From NCBI GenBank assembly GCA_000092065.1, contig CP000593.1: 64,000 nucleotides of DNA; one strand, given 5' to 3'. Source of the stretch: Ostreococcus lucimarinus (taxonomy: Eukaryota). A model generated the notes under the pieces. It did no database searches. It worked only from the letters and a program-made list of their open reading frames with translations, and was not told the DNA's origin. Below are positions 9,445-15,876 of the stretch, in pieces. Position 1 is the stretch's first letter; each line of letters starts with the position of its first letter. The translations under genes were made by a program, and so were the position numbers.

Positions 9445-10788
9445 CTACAATTCGCGCGCGGCTGAGATGAGCTCGCTTGACGACGGAATTTTGTTCTCTA
9501 CTTCTTCGTCGTTGGCTGCGTTTTGCTCGAGAAACGAAATCCACAAGTCTGCGACTGGTACTGGTTTGTTCTCGCCCGTAGCGCCCGTAACTTCGAGTGC
9601 GACGCCTATCGCACCAGCTGCAATGCTCACGGGCGCGCGCGCGATCGTTCCGAGCACACCTCGCTTTTTCTGTCGTCTCTTTAGAGCTTCCATCCGTGCC
9701 TTTTGTTTGTCGGTGAAGCCGAGCATTTTTGCGAGCAAATCGAGCACGTCCTCCGCTCGTTCGCGTTCGAGATAAGCGATGAATAAATCGCTCACTATGC
9801 GCTTATCCAACAATTTCTCACTCTCTACCATCATATCGCTGCTCTTTTGAAGGGCGTGATGGAGCGCTTTCCTGAGCTTACTCGCGTCGCTCGTGGCCTT
9901 GATGCATTCCTCCTTGGCGATTTTCAAGTGAGCCTCAAACTTAGTCAACCTTTCCTCCGCTTCCTTCGCCTTTTCTTTGGCTTCCATGCATGCTGCTCTA
10001 TCAGCAGTCGCCTGCGAGGTGAGTGCGGCTAGCTTTTGTCGTAGATTCGCCGACTCAATGCGCTGCGCGTCCGCGCTCTCGATTTCAGCGTAATATGCCC
10101 CGAGCGCCTTTTGTAAATTTTCCACCTCTTCGTCTCGAGCCTTTATCACCTCCCGCAACCTCGTGACCTCGGCATCGTTTCCACTCATGTTCTTCTTCAA
10201 GTCGCTTAAACGCCGTTCGTATTCTCGCCTTTCCTCCTCTCTCGCCTCGTCTATTTCTCGTTCCTGTTCCTCCGCCACCTCGTCCTCTTCGTCCTCCAGC
10301 GCCAACAAATGTGCCCTCAATTTCTTCAATTCCGTCGCCATCTTGTCGCGCTCACTCCTCAACGTCGCGATCTCTTTCTTGTGTTCGTCCTCCCTCGACG
10401 CATTCCTCGCTAGATCCATCCCCCGCATTCGTTCCGCCTCGCTCGCGCGCTCCGTCAACGCCGCCACCCTTTGCCGCAGTGCCCGCGCATCGTCTCCATC
10501 CGCGCCTTCCGTCGCCCCGCTTCCCTCGTTCATCGCTTCCACGATCGCCGCTGTCTTCGCTTGTTCTTTTTCGACCGCTCGCGCGACGGCCTCGCGCAGC
10601 TTCGCGTCGGCGTCGGCGCGAAACTCGGCGAGTTTTCGTTCAAAATCTATGGAAGCATCCGCGACCGTTTCCGCTTCTGTGGACGACCGCGCGGACGAGG
10701 ACGCGATTTGCGAGGTCTCGCGCGCTTTTTCTCGCTCGCTCACGACTTTCGCGCGAAGTGCGGCGATGCGATCCGCCGCCGACGCCAT
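9445..10788 (-). CDS. Long coiled-coil protein with a possible C-terminal GRIP-like domain (golgin-like)
   Basis: 447 aa with an ATG at 10788. The sequence is E/K/R/A-rich with a heptad character over about 330 aa. The C-terminus IVSDLFIAYLERERAEDVLDLLAKMLGFTDKQK resembles the GRIP consensus (Y..L...E.....L.LL...L.F). Confidence 0.5.
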   Translation of the reverse strand: MASAADRIAALRAKVVSEREKARETSQIASSSARSSTEAETVADASIDFERKLAEFRADADAKLREAVARAVEKEQAKTAAIVEAMNEGSGATEGADGDDARALRQRVAALTERASEAERMRGMDLARNASREDEHKKEIATLRSERDKMATELKKLRAHLLALEDEEDEVAEEQEREIDEAREEERREYERRLSDLKKNMSGNDAEVTRLREVIKARDEEVENLQKALGAYYAEIESADAQRIESANLRQKLAALTSQATADRAACMEAKEKAKEAEERLTKFEAHLKIAKEECIKATSDASKLRKALHHALQKSSDMMVESEKLLDKRIVSDLFIAYLERERAEDVLDLLAKMLGFTDKQKARMEALKRRQKKRGVLGTIARAPVSIAAGAIGVALEVTGATGENKPVPVADLWISFLEQNAANDEEVENKIPSSSELISAAREL

Positions 10789-10901: not shown

Positions 10902-11705
10902 CTACGACGGACGCGGCGCGGACGCCAACACGTCCTCGCTCGAAAGACGCACGACGCGCTCGTCCAAAACAAACTCAAACGTGCCGCCGTCGATGAGCAC
11001 TTTGATCGGTTTCTCGCGCTTGCGCGCGACGAGCCAGAGACATCGCGACGAGATAAAAGCAACGACACCTTCGCGACCGACGAGATCGGGCGCGCGCGCG
11101 TGACGCACGACTTTGAGCACGCAACCGTGTAAGTCGAGCCCGCGCGTCAGTCGCGCCTCAGCCTCGCCGCGCTTCGCGTCCTTCACCAGCGCCCGCGCGT
11201 ACTTTTCCCACAGCCCGCGCAATTTCGAAAACGCGCTCCACGTACACTGTTCCGGCCTCAATCCGTACAATCCTTCCCTCTTTAATCGCGTTTTGCTCAT
11301 CATCGCTCTGCGCGCCTCGGCGAAGCGCTTCTCCCGCTCCCGCGCTCGCGCCTCCCCCGCGTCCACCACCCTCTCCCAATCATTCACGAGCACCAGCGCT
11401 TTATCCGCGCTCAGCTTCGCTCGCAAATCGTCCTCCGCGTCCGCGCTCGTCCCTCGTCGACGCGTCGCCAGCATTCGCCGCGCGTACGCCTCCGCGTACG
11501 CCCTCCGCGCCGCCGCCTCCTCGCGCGCCGTCGCCCGCGCGCCCGCGAACGTCTCCTCGTCCTCCCCGATCGACGGCGCGTAATACGACGTCGTCGGATC
11601 CGCGTCCGCGTCCCGCGCCGTCGTCGTCGCCGCGCTCGACGCCGTCTCGCGCGAAGCGCGCCCGCGCATTCGCGCCTCCAAATCCGCGATTCGCGACGCC
11701 TTCAT
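10902..11705 (-). CDS. POP4: RNase P/MRP protein subunit Rpp29/POP4
   Basis: The C-terminal LDLHGCVLKVVRHARAPDLVGREGVVAFISSRCLWLVARKREKPIKVLIDGGTFEFVL matches the Rpp29 core (LHG..L.VV.S..P.LVG.EGIVV.ET..TF.I.....K.IPK....F.F). The ORF stays open to 11993 but would then overlap the divergent ribokinase gene, so the start is placed at the internal ATG at 11705. The start remains uncertain. Confidence 0.65.
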   Translation of the reverse strand: MKASRIADLEARMRGRASRETASSAATTTARDADADPTTSYYAPSIGEDEETFAGARATAREEAAARRAYAEAYARRMLATRRRGTSADAEDDLRAKLSADKALVLVNDWERVVDAGEARAREREKRFAEARRAMMSKTRLKREGLYGLRPEQCTWSAFSKLRGLWEKYARALVKDAKRGEAEARLTRGLDLHGCVLKVVRHARAPDLVGREGVVAFISSRCLWLVARKREKPIKVLIDGGTFEFVLDERVVRLSSEDVLASAPRPS

Positions 11706-11865
11706 CGCGCGCCTCGTCCTCGCCGTCGCCCCGTCGCTCGCCCGACCGCGCGTCGCGTCGCGTTCGTCGTCGTCGCCGCTCGAGCGTCGTCGAAGCCGCC
11801 GCACGCCGCGCTCTGCGGCGTCGATTCGATTCCATTCCAATCCGCTCGCCGCATTCGTCGTCGCG

Positions 11866-13977
11866 ATGCGTCGCGCGCGTCGCGCGCGGCGCCTCGCGCT
11901 CGGCGCCGCGCTGACCGCGCTCGCGCGCGTCGCGCTCGCGCGCGCCGACCGCGCGTCGATCGCCGTCGTGGGGAGCGTGAACGCCGACGTCATCGCGCGC
12001 GTCGGAACATCGGTCCCGCGCCGCGGAGAAACGCGCGCGGCGACGGCGGCGCGCGTCGAGCGCGCGTGCGGAGGGAAGGGAGCGAATCAAGCGGTCGCGG
12101 CGTCGCGATTGACGTGCGAGCGCGGCGGGAAGGCGGCGTTCGTGGGACGATTCGGGGAGGACGAGGCGGGGACGACGCTGCGACGCGCGCTGCGGCGAGA
12201 GACGGATGTGTCCGGGAGCGTCACGATGGCGCGAGGGAGCGGAATCGAGACGGGAATGGGGTTCGTGATGCTGACGGACGATGGATCGCCGAGCGCGGTG
12301 GTCGTGGGGGGGGCGAACGCGCTCGGATGGAACGCGGACGACGAGGCGCTGGCGAGCGAGTTTCGCGAGGCGCTGCGAGGCGCGAAGACGGTGATGCTGC
12401 AGCGGGAGGTGCCGGAACGCGTGAACGTGATAGCGGCGACGGTTGCGAGGGAAATCGGTGTGCGAACGATCGTGCTGGACGCGGGAGGCTCGTTTCACGC
12501 GGCGGATGAGGCGTTGTTGGCGCTCGTGGATTACGTCGCGCCGAACGAGAGCGAACTCGCGGGAATGGCGGGAATGCGCGTGGAGGAGGTTTCTTCTGGG
12601 GACGAAGCGGTCGTTAAGGCGGCGAGAATCGTCGCAGGAACGTCGCGCGTCGCCGTTCTGTGCACGCTGGGGAGTCGAGGATCGTTGCTCGTGAGAGGCG
12701 AAGACGTCACGAGAGTCGAATCGATGGAACTTCCGGCCGGCGCCAAAGAAGTGGACGCCACCGCGGCTGGTGATGCGTTTCGCGCCGCGTTCGCGGTGGC
12801 GATGGCTGAAAATAAAAACGAGCGCGACGCCATGAAGTTCGCCAGCGCCGCGGGGGCTTTGGCGGTGACGAAGTTGGGTGCGATGCCAAGCCTTCCATTT
12901 CGGAGCGACGTGGATGAATTTCTTGGCGTTTCAGATCCGTGCCGAACGTCCCCTATCTCGTCGTCTTCGTCGTCCAGTGAGGCGGCGATCGAGGCACTTC
13001 GATTTGCCAGTAGATTGAATAGCATGAAATCTCGCGCAGACTTATTCACGGATGCCGAACCGGACGTTCCGGAAGTCTTCAACCTCATAAAGCGCATGGG
13101 ACGCGTTCAGGGCGTGCATTCGGTGTTTCTCAACTACCCCGAACATTTCATCGGACCAGACGGCAACGAGCTCGCGGCAGTGGAATTGCGAGACAAGATT
13201 CTTGCCGCGAAGTTGCGCCCTGGCGCCGTATGCGTGCGATTTCCCGAGGAGCCGTTTCGATTGGGCGCGTTCTCGAATCCCGATGGCGTGATTCGCGAAC
13301 ACGCGGCGACTTTGGCACGCAAGGCGTGCGCGACTGCGACCGCACTCGACGCAGACGAAGTCGTCATATGGCCTCGCTACGATGGATACGATTACAATCT
13401 CCAAGCGGATTACGCCACGGCGTGGGAGGACATGATTGTCGGTTACAAAGCAGTGGCCTCGAGCGAAGAGTGTCGCTCGCTCAAGTTGAGCGTCGAATTC
13501 AAGCCGACGGACGAAAAGAGCCGTTTCAGCTTCATCCCCACCACAGGTGCCGCACTCCTACTCGTCGACGCCGTGGGCGAGCCCAACTTCGGCCTGACAC
13601 TGGACGTCGGCCACGCGCTCGCCGCGGGCGAGAATCCAGCCCAGTCCATCGCGATGGCGGCTTCGAGAAACGCTCTGTTCGGCGTCCAACTCGGCGACGG
13701 TCACACCCGTCTCGGCGCCGAAGACGGTTTGATGTTCGCCTCCGTCCATCCTCACGCCGCCATGGAATTAGTCCGCGCGCTACGTCGCATATCCTACGCC
13801 GGCGTGCTCTACTTTGACACCTTCCCTCTCAACGAAGATCCGGTGGCGGAAGCCGAGCGAAACGCCCGCGTCTTCCGCGACTTCTACGCCCGCATCGTCG
13901 ACGTCGAGGTCGAAATCGAAGATGCCATCGCCAGTCGAGACGCCATTCGAGCTCTCGACGCCGCATCACGGATGTGA
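11866..13977 (+). CDS. Bifunctional-looking protein: ribokinase (pfkB family) N-terminal domain fused to a xylose-isomerase-like TIM-barrel (sugar-phosphate isomerase/epimerase) C-terminal domain
   Basis: 703-aa continuous ORF. The ribokinase signatures are IAVVGSVNADV, GGKGANQA and DATAAGDAF. The C-terminal half (…LTLDVGHALAAGENP…GVQLGDGH…VLYFDTFP…) is typical of the xylose-isomerase-like TIM barrel family. A Ser-rich linker joins the two. Confidence 0.8.
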   Translation: MRRARRARRLALGAALTALARVALARADRASIAVVGSVNADVIARVGTSVPRRGETRAATAARVERACGGKGANQAVAASRLTCERGGKAAFVGRFGEDEAGTTLRRALRRETDVSGSVTMARGSGIETGMGFVMLTDDGSPSAVVVGGANALGWNADDEALASEFREALRGAKTVMLQREVPERVNVIAATVAREIGVRTIVLDAGGSFHAADEALLALVDYVAPNESELAGMAGMRVEEVSSGDEAVVKAARIVAGTSRVAVLCTLGSRGSLLVRGEDVTRVESMELPAGAKEVDATAAGDAFRAAFAVAMAENKNERDAMKFASAAGALAVTKLGAMPSLPFRSDVDEFLGVSDPCRTSPISSSSSSSEAAIEALRFASRLNSMKSRADLFTDAEPDVPEVFNLIKRMGRVQGVHSVFLNYPEHFIGPDGNELAAVELRDKILAAKLRPGAVCVRFPEEPFRLGAFSNPDGVIREHAATLARKACATATALDADEVVIWPRYDGYDYNLQADYATAWEDMIVGYKAVASSEECRSLKLSVEFKPTDEKSRFSFIPTTGAALLLVDAVGEPNFGLTLDVGHALAAGENPAQSIAMAASRNALFGVQLGDGHTRLGAEDGLMFASVHPHAAMELVRALRRISYAGVLYFDTFPLNEDPVAEAERNARVFRDFYARIVDVEVEIEDAIASRDAIRALDAASRM

Positions 13978-14151
13978 TCGATGTAATAACGACGCGCGCC
14001 GCGACGCGCTCGCCGTCCCGTCCCTCGCGCAGTTCCACAGGCGCGGCGCGCCCGGCGTCGTCAGTCGCAGACGCGCGTCCGTCGTCGCGCCCCTCGCGCG
14101 CGACGAAGCGACGCGCTCGCGCGCGTCGCTCGCGCGCGTCTGTCGCGCGCG

Positions 14152-15876
14152 ATGTCGCTCGACGACGACGCCGCGCTCGTTCGGACGCCGCGCCGCAGTT
14201 TCGACACGACGACGGAATCGACGCCGACGGACGCGGGAAAGGGCGCGGACGACCGCGCGACGAGTCCGATGAGCGCGCTATCCGCGCGATCGTCAGCGCA
14301 GAGCTCTCGCGAGGGTCTCGGGCAGGCGGGACAGGAGGCGTCGGAGGGCGCAAAGCTCGCCTGGACGGCGACGCTGATCGGCGACGCGCGCGCGAGTCGG
14401 AGGTTGACGCCGAGTGAGCTGAGAGCGAATGGAAAAGAGGATGGAACGTGGATAGGGAGTTCGCTCGATGCGGACGACGACCGGGACGACGATGCGACGA
14501 GGTCGGGACGGTTGTCGGAGACGAGCGCGTCGAGCTCGCAGAGCGGGACGTTTAGGAGCGCGTTGGGGGCGGTCCCGGAGGAATGGGACGCAGATCCCGA
14601 CCCGCTGGGAATGGCGAAACCAGAGGACGTGTTGAATGCGTCGATGTTCGGGTGGAGATTTCGCCTGGAGGATTTTCAGCTCGTCAACGTCATCGGTCGC
14701 GGGCGATATTCCGTGGTATACAAGGCGTTTTATCGCAGGATGAACTTTGAAGTGGCGCTGAAGTGCTACATCAAGGCAAAGTTGAAACTGCACGTGTACG
14801 AACAGATTGCGCACGAAATTGCGGTGCATCATAGCATGGAACACTCGGCCATCGTGGGATTTTTTGGTTCGTTCATCGACACTTCGACTGGGAACTATTA
14901 TTTAATACACGAGCTTCACAACCGGGGCGACGTTTTCAACGCTTTGGCGCGAGTTGGAGGAAAGTTTAGTGAAAGCCGAGCAGTGACGGGAGTTATGAAA
15001 TGGGTCATCAAAGCCGTCGCGCACATGCACGCGATGAACGTCATACACCGAGATATCAAGCCTGAAAATGTCGTACTCACCGATGACGGCAGAGCGAAGC
15101 TGACGGATTTCGGCTTTGCGTTACATTTGGAGTGGTTCAAACCGCTCGGGCGTTTGGGAACGACGGATTACATGGCGCCGGAGGTTGTACGCTGCGATAA
15201 AGAGTTTCGAGAACGATACCTCCGATTGAATCGCGCTGGGTACGGCAAGGCTGTGGATTTATGGGCCATCGGCGCTTTGGCGTTTGAGCTCGTCGTCGGG
15301 TTTCCGCCGTTTCAGTCGACGAGTCGACAGCAAGCGTACGATATGATTCTCCAAGGTTCGTTCAAGATCCCTGCATTCGTCAGCGAACACGGCGCCGATT
15401 TCATCCGCAAATGCCTCGTTCTCGACCCGAGCGCGAGATTGAAGCCGGAAGAAATGTTAGAGCATCCTTGGATTGTCTCGCTCGGTTCGTCTGGGGAACC
15501 GCGCGCGAACGCGCCGAGAAGCGTTCTCGATTTCGACGCTAACTTCATGAAAAGAGCGCTGTCAGCCGCGCCGGCGACAAAACGCGCGCCAAACAGCCTG
15601 TCATCTAAATTTGCTGCGGCAAATATTTCGCGAGAAGCGCTCGATTCGATCAAGGACGAATTAGATTGGCAGTATGCGGCGAACAACGTTGAGCTCATCA
15701 GCAGTGGACGAGCCGAGACGACGGTGAACCGATCTGCCACCGCCTTTGCGGTTTCAACGGACGTGAACGCGCCTGATTCTACCGCAGTCGTTTTAAGCAC
15801 GCGCTCTTTCAGTCTCAGTCATAGAATTCGAAGGATGGGATCGAATTTTGTGCGTCGCTTCCGAACGCGAGATTAG
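14152..15876 (+). CDS. Ser/Thr protein kinase with a long disordered N-terminus
   Basis: 574 aa. The kinase domain carries IGRGRYSVVYKA (G-loop), ALK, HRDIKPENVVL, DFGFA, APE and a final HPW. A TGTAA motif follows about 60 nt after the stop. Confidence 0.8.
   Translation: MSLDDDAALVRTPRRSFDTTTESTPTDAGKGADDRATSPMSALSARSSAQSSREGLGQAGQEASEGAKLAWTATLIGDARASRRLTPSELRANGKEDGTWIGSSLDADDDRDDDATRSGRLSETSASSSQSGTFRSALGAVPEEWDADPDPLGMAKPEDVLNASMFGWRFRLEDFQLVNVIGRGRYSVVYKAFYRRMNFEVALKCYIKAKLKLHVYEQIAHEIAVHHSMEHSAIVGFFGSFIDTSTGNYYLIHELHNRGDVFNALARVGGKFSESRAVTGVMKWVIKAVAHMHAMNVIHRDIKPENVVLTDDGRAKLTDFGFALHLEWFKPLGRLGTTDYMAPEVVRCDKEFRERYLRLNRAGYGKAVDLWAIGALAFELVVGFPPFQSTSRQQAYDMILQGSFKIPAFVSEHGADFIRKCLVLDPSARLKPEEMLEHPWIVSLGSSGEPRANAPRSVLDFDANFMKRALSAAPATKRAPNSLSSKFAAANISREALDSIKDELDWQYAANNVELISSGRAETTVNRSATAFAVSTDVNAPDSTAVVLSTRSFSLSHRIRRMGSNFVRRFRTRD

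Follow-up and report, generated by a model that had tools for sequence, protein, structure and literature searches.

A fused ribokinase and xylose isomerase-like barrel in Ostreococcus lucimarinus: a candidate bifunctional sugar salvage enzyme of algae

A stretch of 64,000 nucleotides from Ostreococcus lucimarinus (assembly GCA_000092065.1, contig CP000593.1; hereinafter, the window) contains a single open reading frame (ORF) in which a sugar kinase of the ribokinase family is followed by a TIM barrel of the xylose isomerase-like superfamily. The question raised by this locus is what a kinase and a putative isomerase would accomplish as one polypeptide and, in particular, on which sugar and in which order the two would act. 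The best explanation as a whole appears to be a bifunctional salvage enzyme, in which the isomerase would act first and the ribokinase second on a ribo-configured sugar; we assign this reading, which is built on sequence and predicted structure, a probability of about 0.55. The gene and its parts are located as follows.

11866..13977, plus strand: coding sequence of the fusion, one ORF with an ATG start, 703 amino acids and a stop codon, 0 internal stops and no need for an intron
11953..12897, plus strand: PfkB ribokinase domain, amino acids 30-344 (Pfam PF00294, E=1e-40)
12928..12996, plus strand: Ser-rich linker, amino acids 355-377 (VSDPCRTSPISSSSSSSEAAIEA), with a predicted local distance difference test (pLDDT) score below 50 at amino acids 360-369
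12997..13974, plus strand: putative metal-dependent (beta/alpha)8 aldose-ketose isomerase domain, amino acids 378-703, delineated by its signature motifs

An earlier note on this DNA had described a continuous 703-amino acid frame that fuses the two domains through a Ser-rich linker, and this description is borne out by the ORF itself, by re-translation of the window (GC content of 64%, and 74% at third codon positions, GC3) and by Pfam scores of both domains that exceed the respective cutoffs. The match of both domains with Pfam families is far beyond chance. The protein consists of the PfkB domain, the disordered linker with its run of seven Ser residues (amino acids 365-371, nucleotides 12958-12978) and the barrel; the length and sequence of the linker differ between homologs. 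A public protein of the same length, P0001, is 99% identical to the fusion, and the window protein aligns over its full length with the 699-amino acid ortholog from O. tauri and 18 other fusion proteins. The existing annotation is less complete. The ‘predicted protein, partial' of O. lucimarinus CCE9901 (XP_001420964.1, also listed as XP_001422930.1) is identical to amino acids 1-356 of the window protein, so that the RefSeq model covers positions 11866-12933, ends within the linker and appears to miss the isomerase half (12934-13977) despite the continuous frame. The O. tauri ortholog is annotated at full length (686/699 amino acids; CEG00142.1), under the names ‘Xylose isomerase' or ‘xylose isomerase-like protein' in NCBI and ‘Ribokinase' in UniRef.

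The fusion is by no means confined to Ostreococcus. In a large protein search, both Pfam domains were found in all 120 homologs among the matches listed, and more than 100 algal protein clusters have the kinase-barrel architecture. Among the chlorophytes, these include Chloropicon, Chlamydomonas, Chlorella, Tetradesmus, Raphidocelis, Monoraphidium, Micractinium and others; outside this group, the fusion is found in the dinoflagellates Effrenium and Alexandrium, the diatoms Thalassiosira and Cyclotella, one pelagophyte and one ochromonad (chrysophyte). Both domains are present in the MMETSP transcripts P0017, P0091 and P0074, which are labeled ‘type:complete' and indicate a single mRNA in other algae. 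No land plant, animal, fungus or bacterium is named among the matches listed. The suggestion that the architecture is foreign to standard model organisms thus holds in that it is absent from the classic models, with no land plant among these named matches, but it is widespread in algae, where the earlier note had proposed to look for it, and already has a name in public records, ‘ribokinase xylose isomerase' (for instance, in Chloropicon primus and Raphidocelis subcapitata). The fusion is, accordingly, already catalogued in databases as an architecture, and the O. lucimarinus protein is new only as a member of a catalogued fusion family.

A trivial explanation would be an artefact of annotation or assembly, or the chance joining of unrelated genes, with the C-terminal domain inactive or moonlighting. 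The O. lucimarinus RefSeq model, which is ‘partial' and stops at amino acid 356, and a metagenomic variant, P0009, that is frameshifted in the C-terminal domain could be construed in this sense, but the frame is uninterrupted in the window, the architecture recurs in more than 100 clusters including complete MMETSP transcripts, the metal-ligand and catalytic residues are conserved in 108 sequences, and the same two families are linked in bacterial operons. An artefact is essentially excluded, and the locus is very likely to be a real, conserved and intact single gene with both domains predicted to be active. In P0009 itself (from an ENA metagenomic contig, 98% identity), the isomerase domain slips into the +1 frame over window positions ~13200-13800, which matches a shadow ORF at 13230..13817 and represents either a frameshifted assembly or an allele.

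The identity of the N-terminal half is the more straightforward part of the problem. The PfkB match scores 140.4 bits against a cutoff of 25.8 and covers profile positions 2-300 of 302, which places this half in the PfkB family, and the ribokinase motifs on which the earlier assignment was based are in place: GGKGANQA at amino acids 69-76 (nucleotides 12070-12093) and DATAAGDAF at amino acids 297-305 (nucleotides 12754-12780, with D303), along with GSVNADV (amino acids 36-42), LQREVP (E181) and PNESE (N227/E230). The closest relative with a solved structure is the Arabidopsis ribokinase (6ilr, E=7.8e-51); bacterial ribokinases come next, and the top 15 sequence matches among solved structures that align to this half are all ribokinases. 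In a HMMER alignment to E. coli RbsK (1gqt), N39, D41, G69-G70-K71, N74, E181, N227/E230 and D303 all fall on contact or catalytic positions, which we take to be N14, D16, G41-G42-K43, N46, E143, N187/E190 and D255 of RbsK, and A301-G302-D303 are the equivalents of the anion hole and the base. Apart from N74 (92 Asn, 15 Thr), variation at these positions is absent or nearly so in the 108 fusions. In a Foldseek search, the AlphaFold model of the whole protein (pLDDT 85.5) could be superimposed on ribokinases, with target template modeling (TM) scores up to 0.93.

A neighbor-joining tree (no bootstrap) unites the algal kinase domains in a single clade, with Arabidopsis RBSK (AtRBSK) as its sister group; the mean identities are 41% with AtRBSK, 34% with E. 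coli RbsK and 30% with the partner kinases of the bacterial operons discussed below. The algal domain shares the PfkB fold and the GGKGANQ, NxxE and AAGD motifs with plant and bacterial ribokinases (Enzyme Commission number EC 2.7.1.15; AtRBSK 6ilr, RbsK 1rkd/1gqt), and is ~35-41% identical to AtRBSK, but differs from the latter in being fused to a second catalytic domain and in carrying a short, hydrophobic leader where Arabidopsis has a longer plastid transit peptide. Taken together, these features identify the N-terminal half as a plant-type ribokinase that is predicted to be catalytically intact and that probably phosphorylates D-ribose. A separate observation concerns the dinoflagellate Effrenium voratum, whose kinase (P0011) falls inside the chlorophyte clade rather than with those of stramenopiles or the Alexandrium-labeled P0104; gene transfer or contamination could be responsible.

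The leader is a feature of the whole family and not only of the window protein.

11866..11955, plus strand: N-terminal leader, amino acids 1-30 (MRRARRARRLALGAALTALARVALARADRAS), similar to signal peptides, membrane anchors or targeting peptides; the first beta-strand of the kinase follows directly

Amino acids 2-26 form a helix in the AlphaFold model. Among the 99 homologs that start with Met, the leader has the median length of 33 amino acids, and its best 12-residue hydrophobic stretch reaches a Kyte-Doolittle value of at least 2.0 in 88% of the cases, compared with 1% of internal control windows. Many family leaders resemble classic signal peptides and end shortly before the first kinase strand; the window leader itself is more weakly hydrophobic (1.77), more basic and rich in Arg. 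A hydrophobic leader on a sugar kinase is unusual and unexpected for a ribokinase.

The C-terminal half had been taken for a barrel of the xylose isomerase-like superfamily, a claim that hinged on a match to such a family, and AP_endonuc_2 (‘xylose isomerase-like TIM barrel', PF01261) indeed matches amino acids 467-671 with E=4.5e-16 and 59.7 bits, compared with the cutoff of 31.1; this score, together with the (beta/alpha)8 fold, places the barrel in the superfamily. The conserved motifs are FASRLNSMK (R383), NYPEH (H427), VRFP (R458), VEFKPTDE (E544, K546), LDVGH (amino acids 579-583; D580, H583), FGVQLGD (Q608, D611), which extends into the GDGH of FGVQLGDGH (amino acids 605-613), GAEDG (E619, D620) and YFDTFP (D651). 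By sequence, the nearest solved structure is 3ktc (E=4.1e-30), with class I xylose isomerases next (1e-14 to 1e-9). The search with the full-length model recovered ribokinases alone, so that a separate model of the barrel domain was built, and its comparison with known structures gave the following values.

3ktc: 37.7
Class I xylose isomerase: 33.5
P. stutzeri L-rhamnose isomerase: 32.7
Class II xylose isomerase: 30.3
Ketose 3-epimerases: 26.8 or less
UlaE: 20.8
Endonuclease IV: about 21

The isomerase structures align to the barrel across more than 300 residues. The correspondence of the putative active site residues with those of xylose isomerase, obtained from a HMMER alignment to the T. 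thermophilus enzyme and given in S. rubiginosus numbering, is as follows.

E544: xylose isomerase E181
K546: xylose isomerase catalytic K183
D580: xylose isomerase E217
H583: xylose isomerase H220
Q608: xylose isomerase D245
E619: xylose isomerase D255
G621: xylose isomerase D257
D651: xylose isomerase D287

All these positions are invariant in the 108 fusions except 608, where 72 of the proteins have Gln and 34 have His. With its complete-looking metal center and the isomerase-specific Lys, the barrel is predicted to be a catalytically intact, divalent metal-dependent aldose-ketose isomerase. It is not, however, a true xylose isomerase: three of the seven ligands are substituted (E217 to D580, D245 to Q608, D257 to G621), and the NCBIfam scores are far too low, 61 bits against 447 for xylA_Arthro and 21.5 against 533 for xylose_isom_A. 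L-rhamnose isomerase is rejected on its score (26 bits against the NCBIfam cutoff of 531). The ketose 3-epimerases, namely, D-tagatose/D-allulose 3-epimerase, FrlC and UlaE, contain a single-metal E-D-H-E set and two catalytic Glu residues, with no Lys two residues past the first Glu; neither the ligand set nor the closest structural neighbors of the algal barrel are those of the 3-epimerases. Of the earlier description of this half as a ‘sugar-phosphate isomerase/epimerase', the isomerase class is thus retained, on the strength of the Lys and the metal center, and the epimerase is dropped.

The catalytic face of the barrel is distinctive in another respect. R383 and N385 at the end of beta1 and R458 at the end of beta3 occupy positions that are hydrophobic in xylose isomerase. 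All 108 fusions have these three residues, as does the standalone bacterial family described below, but P0243, the one 3ktc-like protein in the alignment of that family, does not. Compared with class I xylose isomerase (EC 5.3.1.5) and P. stutzeri L-rhamnose isomerase (EC 5.3.1.14, 2hcv), the algal barrel is also ~60-100 residues shorter. The closest structure, 3ktc, is a structural genomics entry, the ‘putative sugar isomerase' YP_050048.1 of Pectobacterium atrosepticum, with ~25-33% identity to the algal barrel over a HMMER alignment that leaves out the N-terminal part of 3ktc; at the positions of Q/H608 and G621 of the algal family, it has Asp residues, as in xylose isomerase. The literature search found no published function for 3ktc, and with no function assigned, this structure gives no substrate for the algal barrel.

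More telling are the bacterial relatives. An exhaustive search with the C-terminal domain yielded 834 representative proteins, including standalone relatives of ~320 amino acids (39-48% identity) and an additional tier (26-37%); among the standalone relatives, E-values range from 1e-60 to 1e-25 and identities from 26 to 48%. An alignment of 19 standalone proteins with the window domain (A2) includes P0243, which lacks the RLNS motif and has a xylose isomerase-like Trp in its place. The motifs common to the family are RLNS, NYPEH, E-x-K-P, LD-x-x-H, ENP, (H/Q)-L-N/G-D-G, (D/E)-D-G-L and YFDTFP; proteins from Pantoea sp. At-9b (WP_013512642.1) and Klebsiella pneumoniae (WP_023325248.1), for example, are 37-48% identical to the algal domain and share all signature motifs. 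Labeled ‘sugar phosphate isomerase/epimerase family protein' or ‘TIM barrel protein', the bacterial isomerase matches no equivalog model. A scan of bacterial genomes with the C-domain as a single sequence gave no matches; with a seed alignment of seven sequences, at least 595 bacterial relatives were confirmed.

The gene neighborhoods of 80 of these 595 loci are far from random. A PfkB kinase is encoded within 8 kb, the distance adopted for counting, in 59-60 of the 80 loci, in several cases adjacent to the isomerase gene or overlapping it by a few bases. The conserved core consists of a transporter, the isomerase, the kinase and an RpiR/DeoR regulator, in some cases with an RbsD/FucU protein, the identity of which was confirmed by Pfam (RbsD_FucU). 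A recurrent order in Firmicutes and Fusobacteria is isomerase, substrate-binding protein, ATPase, permease, kinase and DeoR, all in one direction; in Bacillus and Enterobacterales, the kinase and RpiR genes diverge from those for the isomerase and a major facilitator superfamily (MFS) transporter; in Rhizobiales, the order is kinase, RbsD/FucU, isomerase, substrate-binding protein, ATPase, permease and RpiR. The Pantoea and Klebsiella replicons, as annotated by PGAP, carry the unit ‘ribokinase / SIS-domain protein / sugar phosphate isomerase-epimerase family protein / MFS transporter'. The partner kinase, named ‘ribokinase' by PGAP, scores 293 bits on the ribokinase equivalog against a cutoff of 299.65, and the binding protein and the regulator are similar to AlsB/RbsB and AlsR/RpiR, respectively. 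Both the motifs and the association with a kinase place the algal barrel in this bacterial kinase-linked isomerase family; judged from its sequence, the barrel belongs to an uncharacterized bacterial-type family within the xylose/L-rhamnose isomerase structural class.

Some of these loci depart from the common pattern. In the alphaproteobacterial loci L031, L036, L050, L059 and L061, some from uncultured marine bacteria, the isomerase-kinase pair lies beside a module resembling BtpA/SgcQ and M42 peptidases, often with an FGGY (XylB-like) kinase; this arrangement is reminiscent of sgcQ-sgcX, the unexplained genes in the sgc operon of E. coli. In locus L031, the isomerase is followed by two PfkB kinases in tandem, and in the planctomycetotal locus L077, an ABC transporter is flanked by two copies of the isomerase.

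Among the neighbors in the 80 loci, no further conserved enzyme was found apart from the kinase and the isomerase, so that these two must suffice to reach central metabolism. The bacterial isomerase is, as in algae, partnered with a ribokinase-family kinase, but the polypeptides are separate and the kinase is of a different lineage; furthermore, adjacent bacterial pairs are mostly in the isomerase-kinase order, the opposite of the algal fusion. Because the algal kinase is of the plant type and the usual bacterial gene order is reversed, the pairing appears to have arisen more than once, which argues for real functional coupling, and the same two reasons lead us to reject the idea that the two bacterial genes were inherited together. 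Along the lines of the Rosetta-stone principle, the algal fusion and the separate bacterial pairing point to consecutive steps on one ribo-configured sugar, and it is probable that the two domains act in one pathway, the succession of activities being what we infer from these associations. Comparable arrangements exist: E. coli FrlD/FrlC, like the algal fusion, couples a PfkB kinase to an enzyme of the neighboring step, although FrlC is an E-D-H-E 3-epimerase without the E-x-K motif, and the HldE kinase-adenylyltransferase and iolC-type kinase-aldolase fusions, both of which appear among the NCBIfam matches, join the kinase to unrelated folds.

In the scheme with the isomerase acting first, a metal-assisted hydride shift in the barrel would turn a free ketose, most simply D-ribulose, into D-ribose; the kinase would then trap ribose as ribose 5-phosphate using ATP, and ribose 5-phosphate would enter the pentose phosphate/Calvin pool. 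This order is favored because every characterized enzyme of the structural class acts on free sugars, and because it explains the presence of a second cluster in bacteria that already have rbs genes. The choice of a free sugar, with isomerization ahead of phosphorylation, nevertheless stays tentative as regards both the sugar and the order of the steps, the isomerase-first order taken by itself having somewhat less than an even chance.

Several observations weigh against this reading. Literature searches found no paper on the fusion or on the bacterial isomerase family, nor any pertinent work on apiose/apulose enzymes, D-ribose isomerase or ribokinase in Ostreococcus, and to our knowledge, free D-ribulose is not an abundant nutrient. 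The kinase half scores 197.5 bits on the ribokinase equivalog TIGR02152 (cutoff 299.65) and 180.5 on NF008353 (cutoff 341) of NCBIfam, so that strict ribokinase specificity is not guaranteed, although ribokinase is still the highest-scoring NCBIfam family for this half, by more than 100 bits. The signal peptide-like leader fits poorly with salvage in the cytosol or the stroma. AlphaFold gives no confident interdomain interface (predicted TM score, pTM, of 0.52), which leaves physical channeling unsupported. Finally, DeoR/RpiR regulators usually sense a phosphosugar specific to the pathway, and the invariant R383, R458 and N385 could form a phosphate pocket, which would favor the opposite order of steps.

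In that opposite order, D-ribose or a close furanose analog would be phosphorylated by the N-terminal domain, and the C-terminal domain would be a new metal-dependent pentose-5-phosphate isomerase that, for example, interconverts ribose 5-phosphate and ribulose 5-phosphate, so that salvaged ribose would be delivered as the ketose phosphate; this is the channeling of a phosphorylated pentose that the earlier note had envisaged. Apart from the Arg and Asn residues at the catalytic face and the typical ligands of the regulators, it would account for the resemblance of the operon binding proteins to the aldose binders AlsB/RbsB and for the RbsD/FucU proteins, which act on free ribose ahead of a kinase, and it has a precedent in E. 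coli rpiR-rpiB, which adjoins the als operon. Yet no enzyme of the xylose/rhamnose isomerase class is known to act on a phosphosugar, the known phosphosugar aldose-ketose isomerases have other folds and an enediol mechanism, and the activity would be redundant in cells that already have RpiA/RpiB. On balance, we consider the kinase-first order, although the strongest of the alternatives, rather unlikely.

A third possibility is a ribo-configured hexose: the barrel would interconvert D-allose and D-psicose, the kinase would phosphorylate psicofuranose or allose, and an allulose-6-phosphate 3-epimerase encoded elsewhere would complete the route. P. stutzeri L-rhamnose isomerase can, indeed, interconvert these two sugars. 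The scores that could be cited for an allose/psicose link, however, are all under the curated cutoffs, no RPE/AlsE-like gene is found among the conserved neighbors in the 80 bacterial loci, the algal kinase retains all ribose contacts and is sister to a proven ribokinase, and neither D-allose nor D-psicose, both of them rare sugars, is known to play a part in marine picoalgae. The hexose route therefore appears highly improbable.

The bifunctional enzyme with the isomerase acting ahead of the ribokinase thus remains the preferred reading. A bolder and, at present, doubtful extension is that the family of the C-terminal domain is the orphan D-ribose/D-ribulose isomerase (an activity that we take to be EC 5.3.1.20) or else a third, metal-dependent ribose-5-phosphate isomerase, and that algae possess a leader-targeted salvage route that is absent from land plants. 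The barrel would then have been fused in algae to a housekeeping ribokinase, and the leader could direct the enzyme to a non-cytosolic compartment or a membrane.

The immediate neighbor of the fusion gene requires a comment because the earlier note had described a head-to-head Rpp29 gene whose maximal ORF overlaps that of the fusion.

10902..11705, minus strand: Rpp29 (Pop4), a subunit of RNase P/MRP, head-to-head with the fusion; maximal ORF to 11993, 363 amino acids
11706..11865, no strand assigned: probable divergent intergenic/promoter region of 160 bp, provided that Rpp29 starts at its second Met

The protein is a bona fide homolog of Rpp29 (match to the human protein, 6ahr_D, E=4.8e-7), although Pfam RNase_P-MRP_p29 scores 19.4 bits, under the cutoff of 27, and the maximal ORFs (10902..11993 for Rpp29) do overlap, by 128 nucleotides. 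A real overlap of the two genes is nonetheless unlikely: similarity to human Rpp29 starts only at amino acid 220 of the maximal ORF, far downstream, the next (second) Met is at nucleotide 11705, and the wobble positions of the antisense frame coincide with those of the fusion frame. Given that third codon positions are common to both frames (11991-11868 = 123 = 3 x 41), stop codons are suppressed in GC3-rich DNA, and the first 96 codons of the maximal Rpp29 ORF (11705-11993, minus strand), antisense to the 5' end of the fusion, are probably not coding. The same applies to the other shadow ORFs on the fusion gene, of up to 365 amino acids, at 11401-12498 (minus), 12531-13097 (minus), 13230-13817 (plus) and 13829-14353 (minus), which are typical of GC3-rich coding DNA and are not to be taken as genes. 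Beyond Rpp29, positions 9445-10788 (minus) encode a 447-amino acid coiled-coil protein that may be golgin-like (GRAB domain, 25.1 bits against a cutoff of 26), and downstream of the fusion, positions 14152-15876 (plus) encode a 574-amino acid Ser/Thr protein kinase (Pkinase, E=4.6e-56), the N-terminus of which is long and of low complexity. Across the 64-kb window, the GC content alternates between ~0.52 and ~0.69 in 2-kb blocks.

These observations do not overturn the current understanding: both superfamilies are well known, and the architecture is already present in public databases. The isomerase half represents an uncharacterized subfamily, and the O. lucimarinus gene model is corrected from the 356-amino acid ‘partial' protein to 703 amino acids. 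The conserved hydrophobic leader raises the question of where this sugar kinase works in algal cells. If the two halves act in sequence, the fusion would provide the first functional lead for the large unnamed bacterial ‘sugar phosphate isomerase/epimerase' family that occurs in Rhizobiales, Bacilli, Enterobacterales and others, and if the proposed role is true, many algae would handle ribose salvage in a manner unlike that of land plants.

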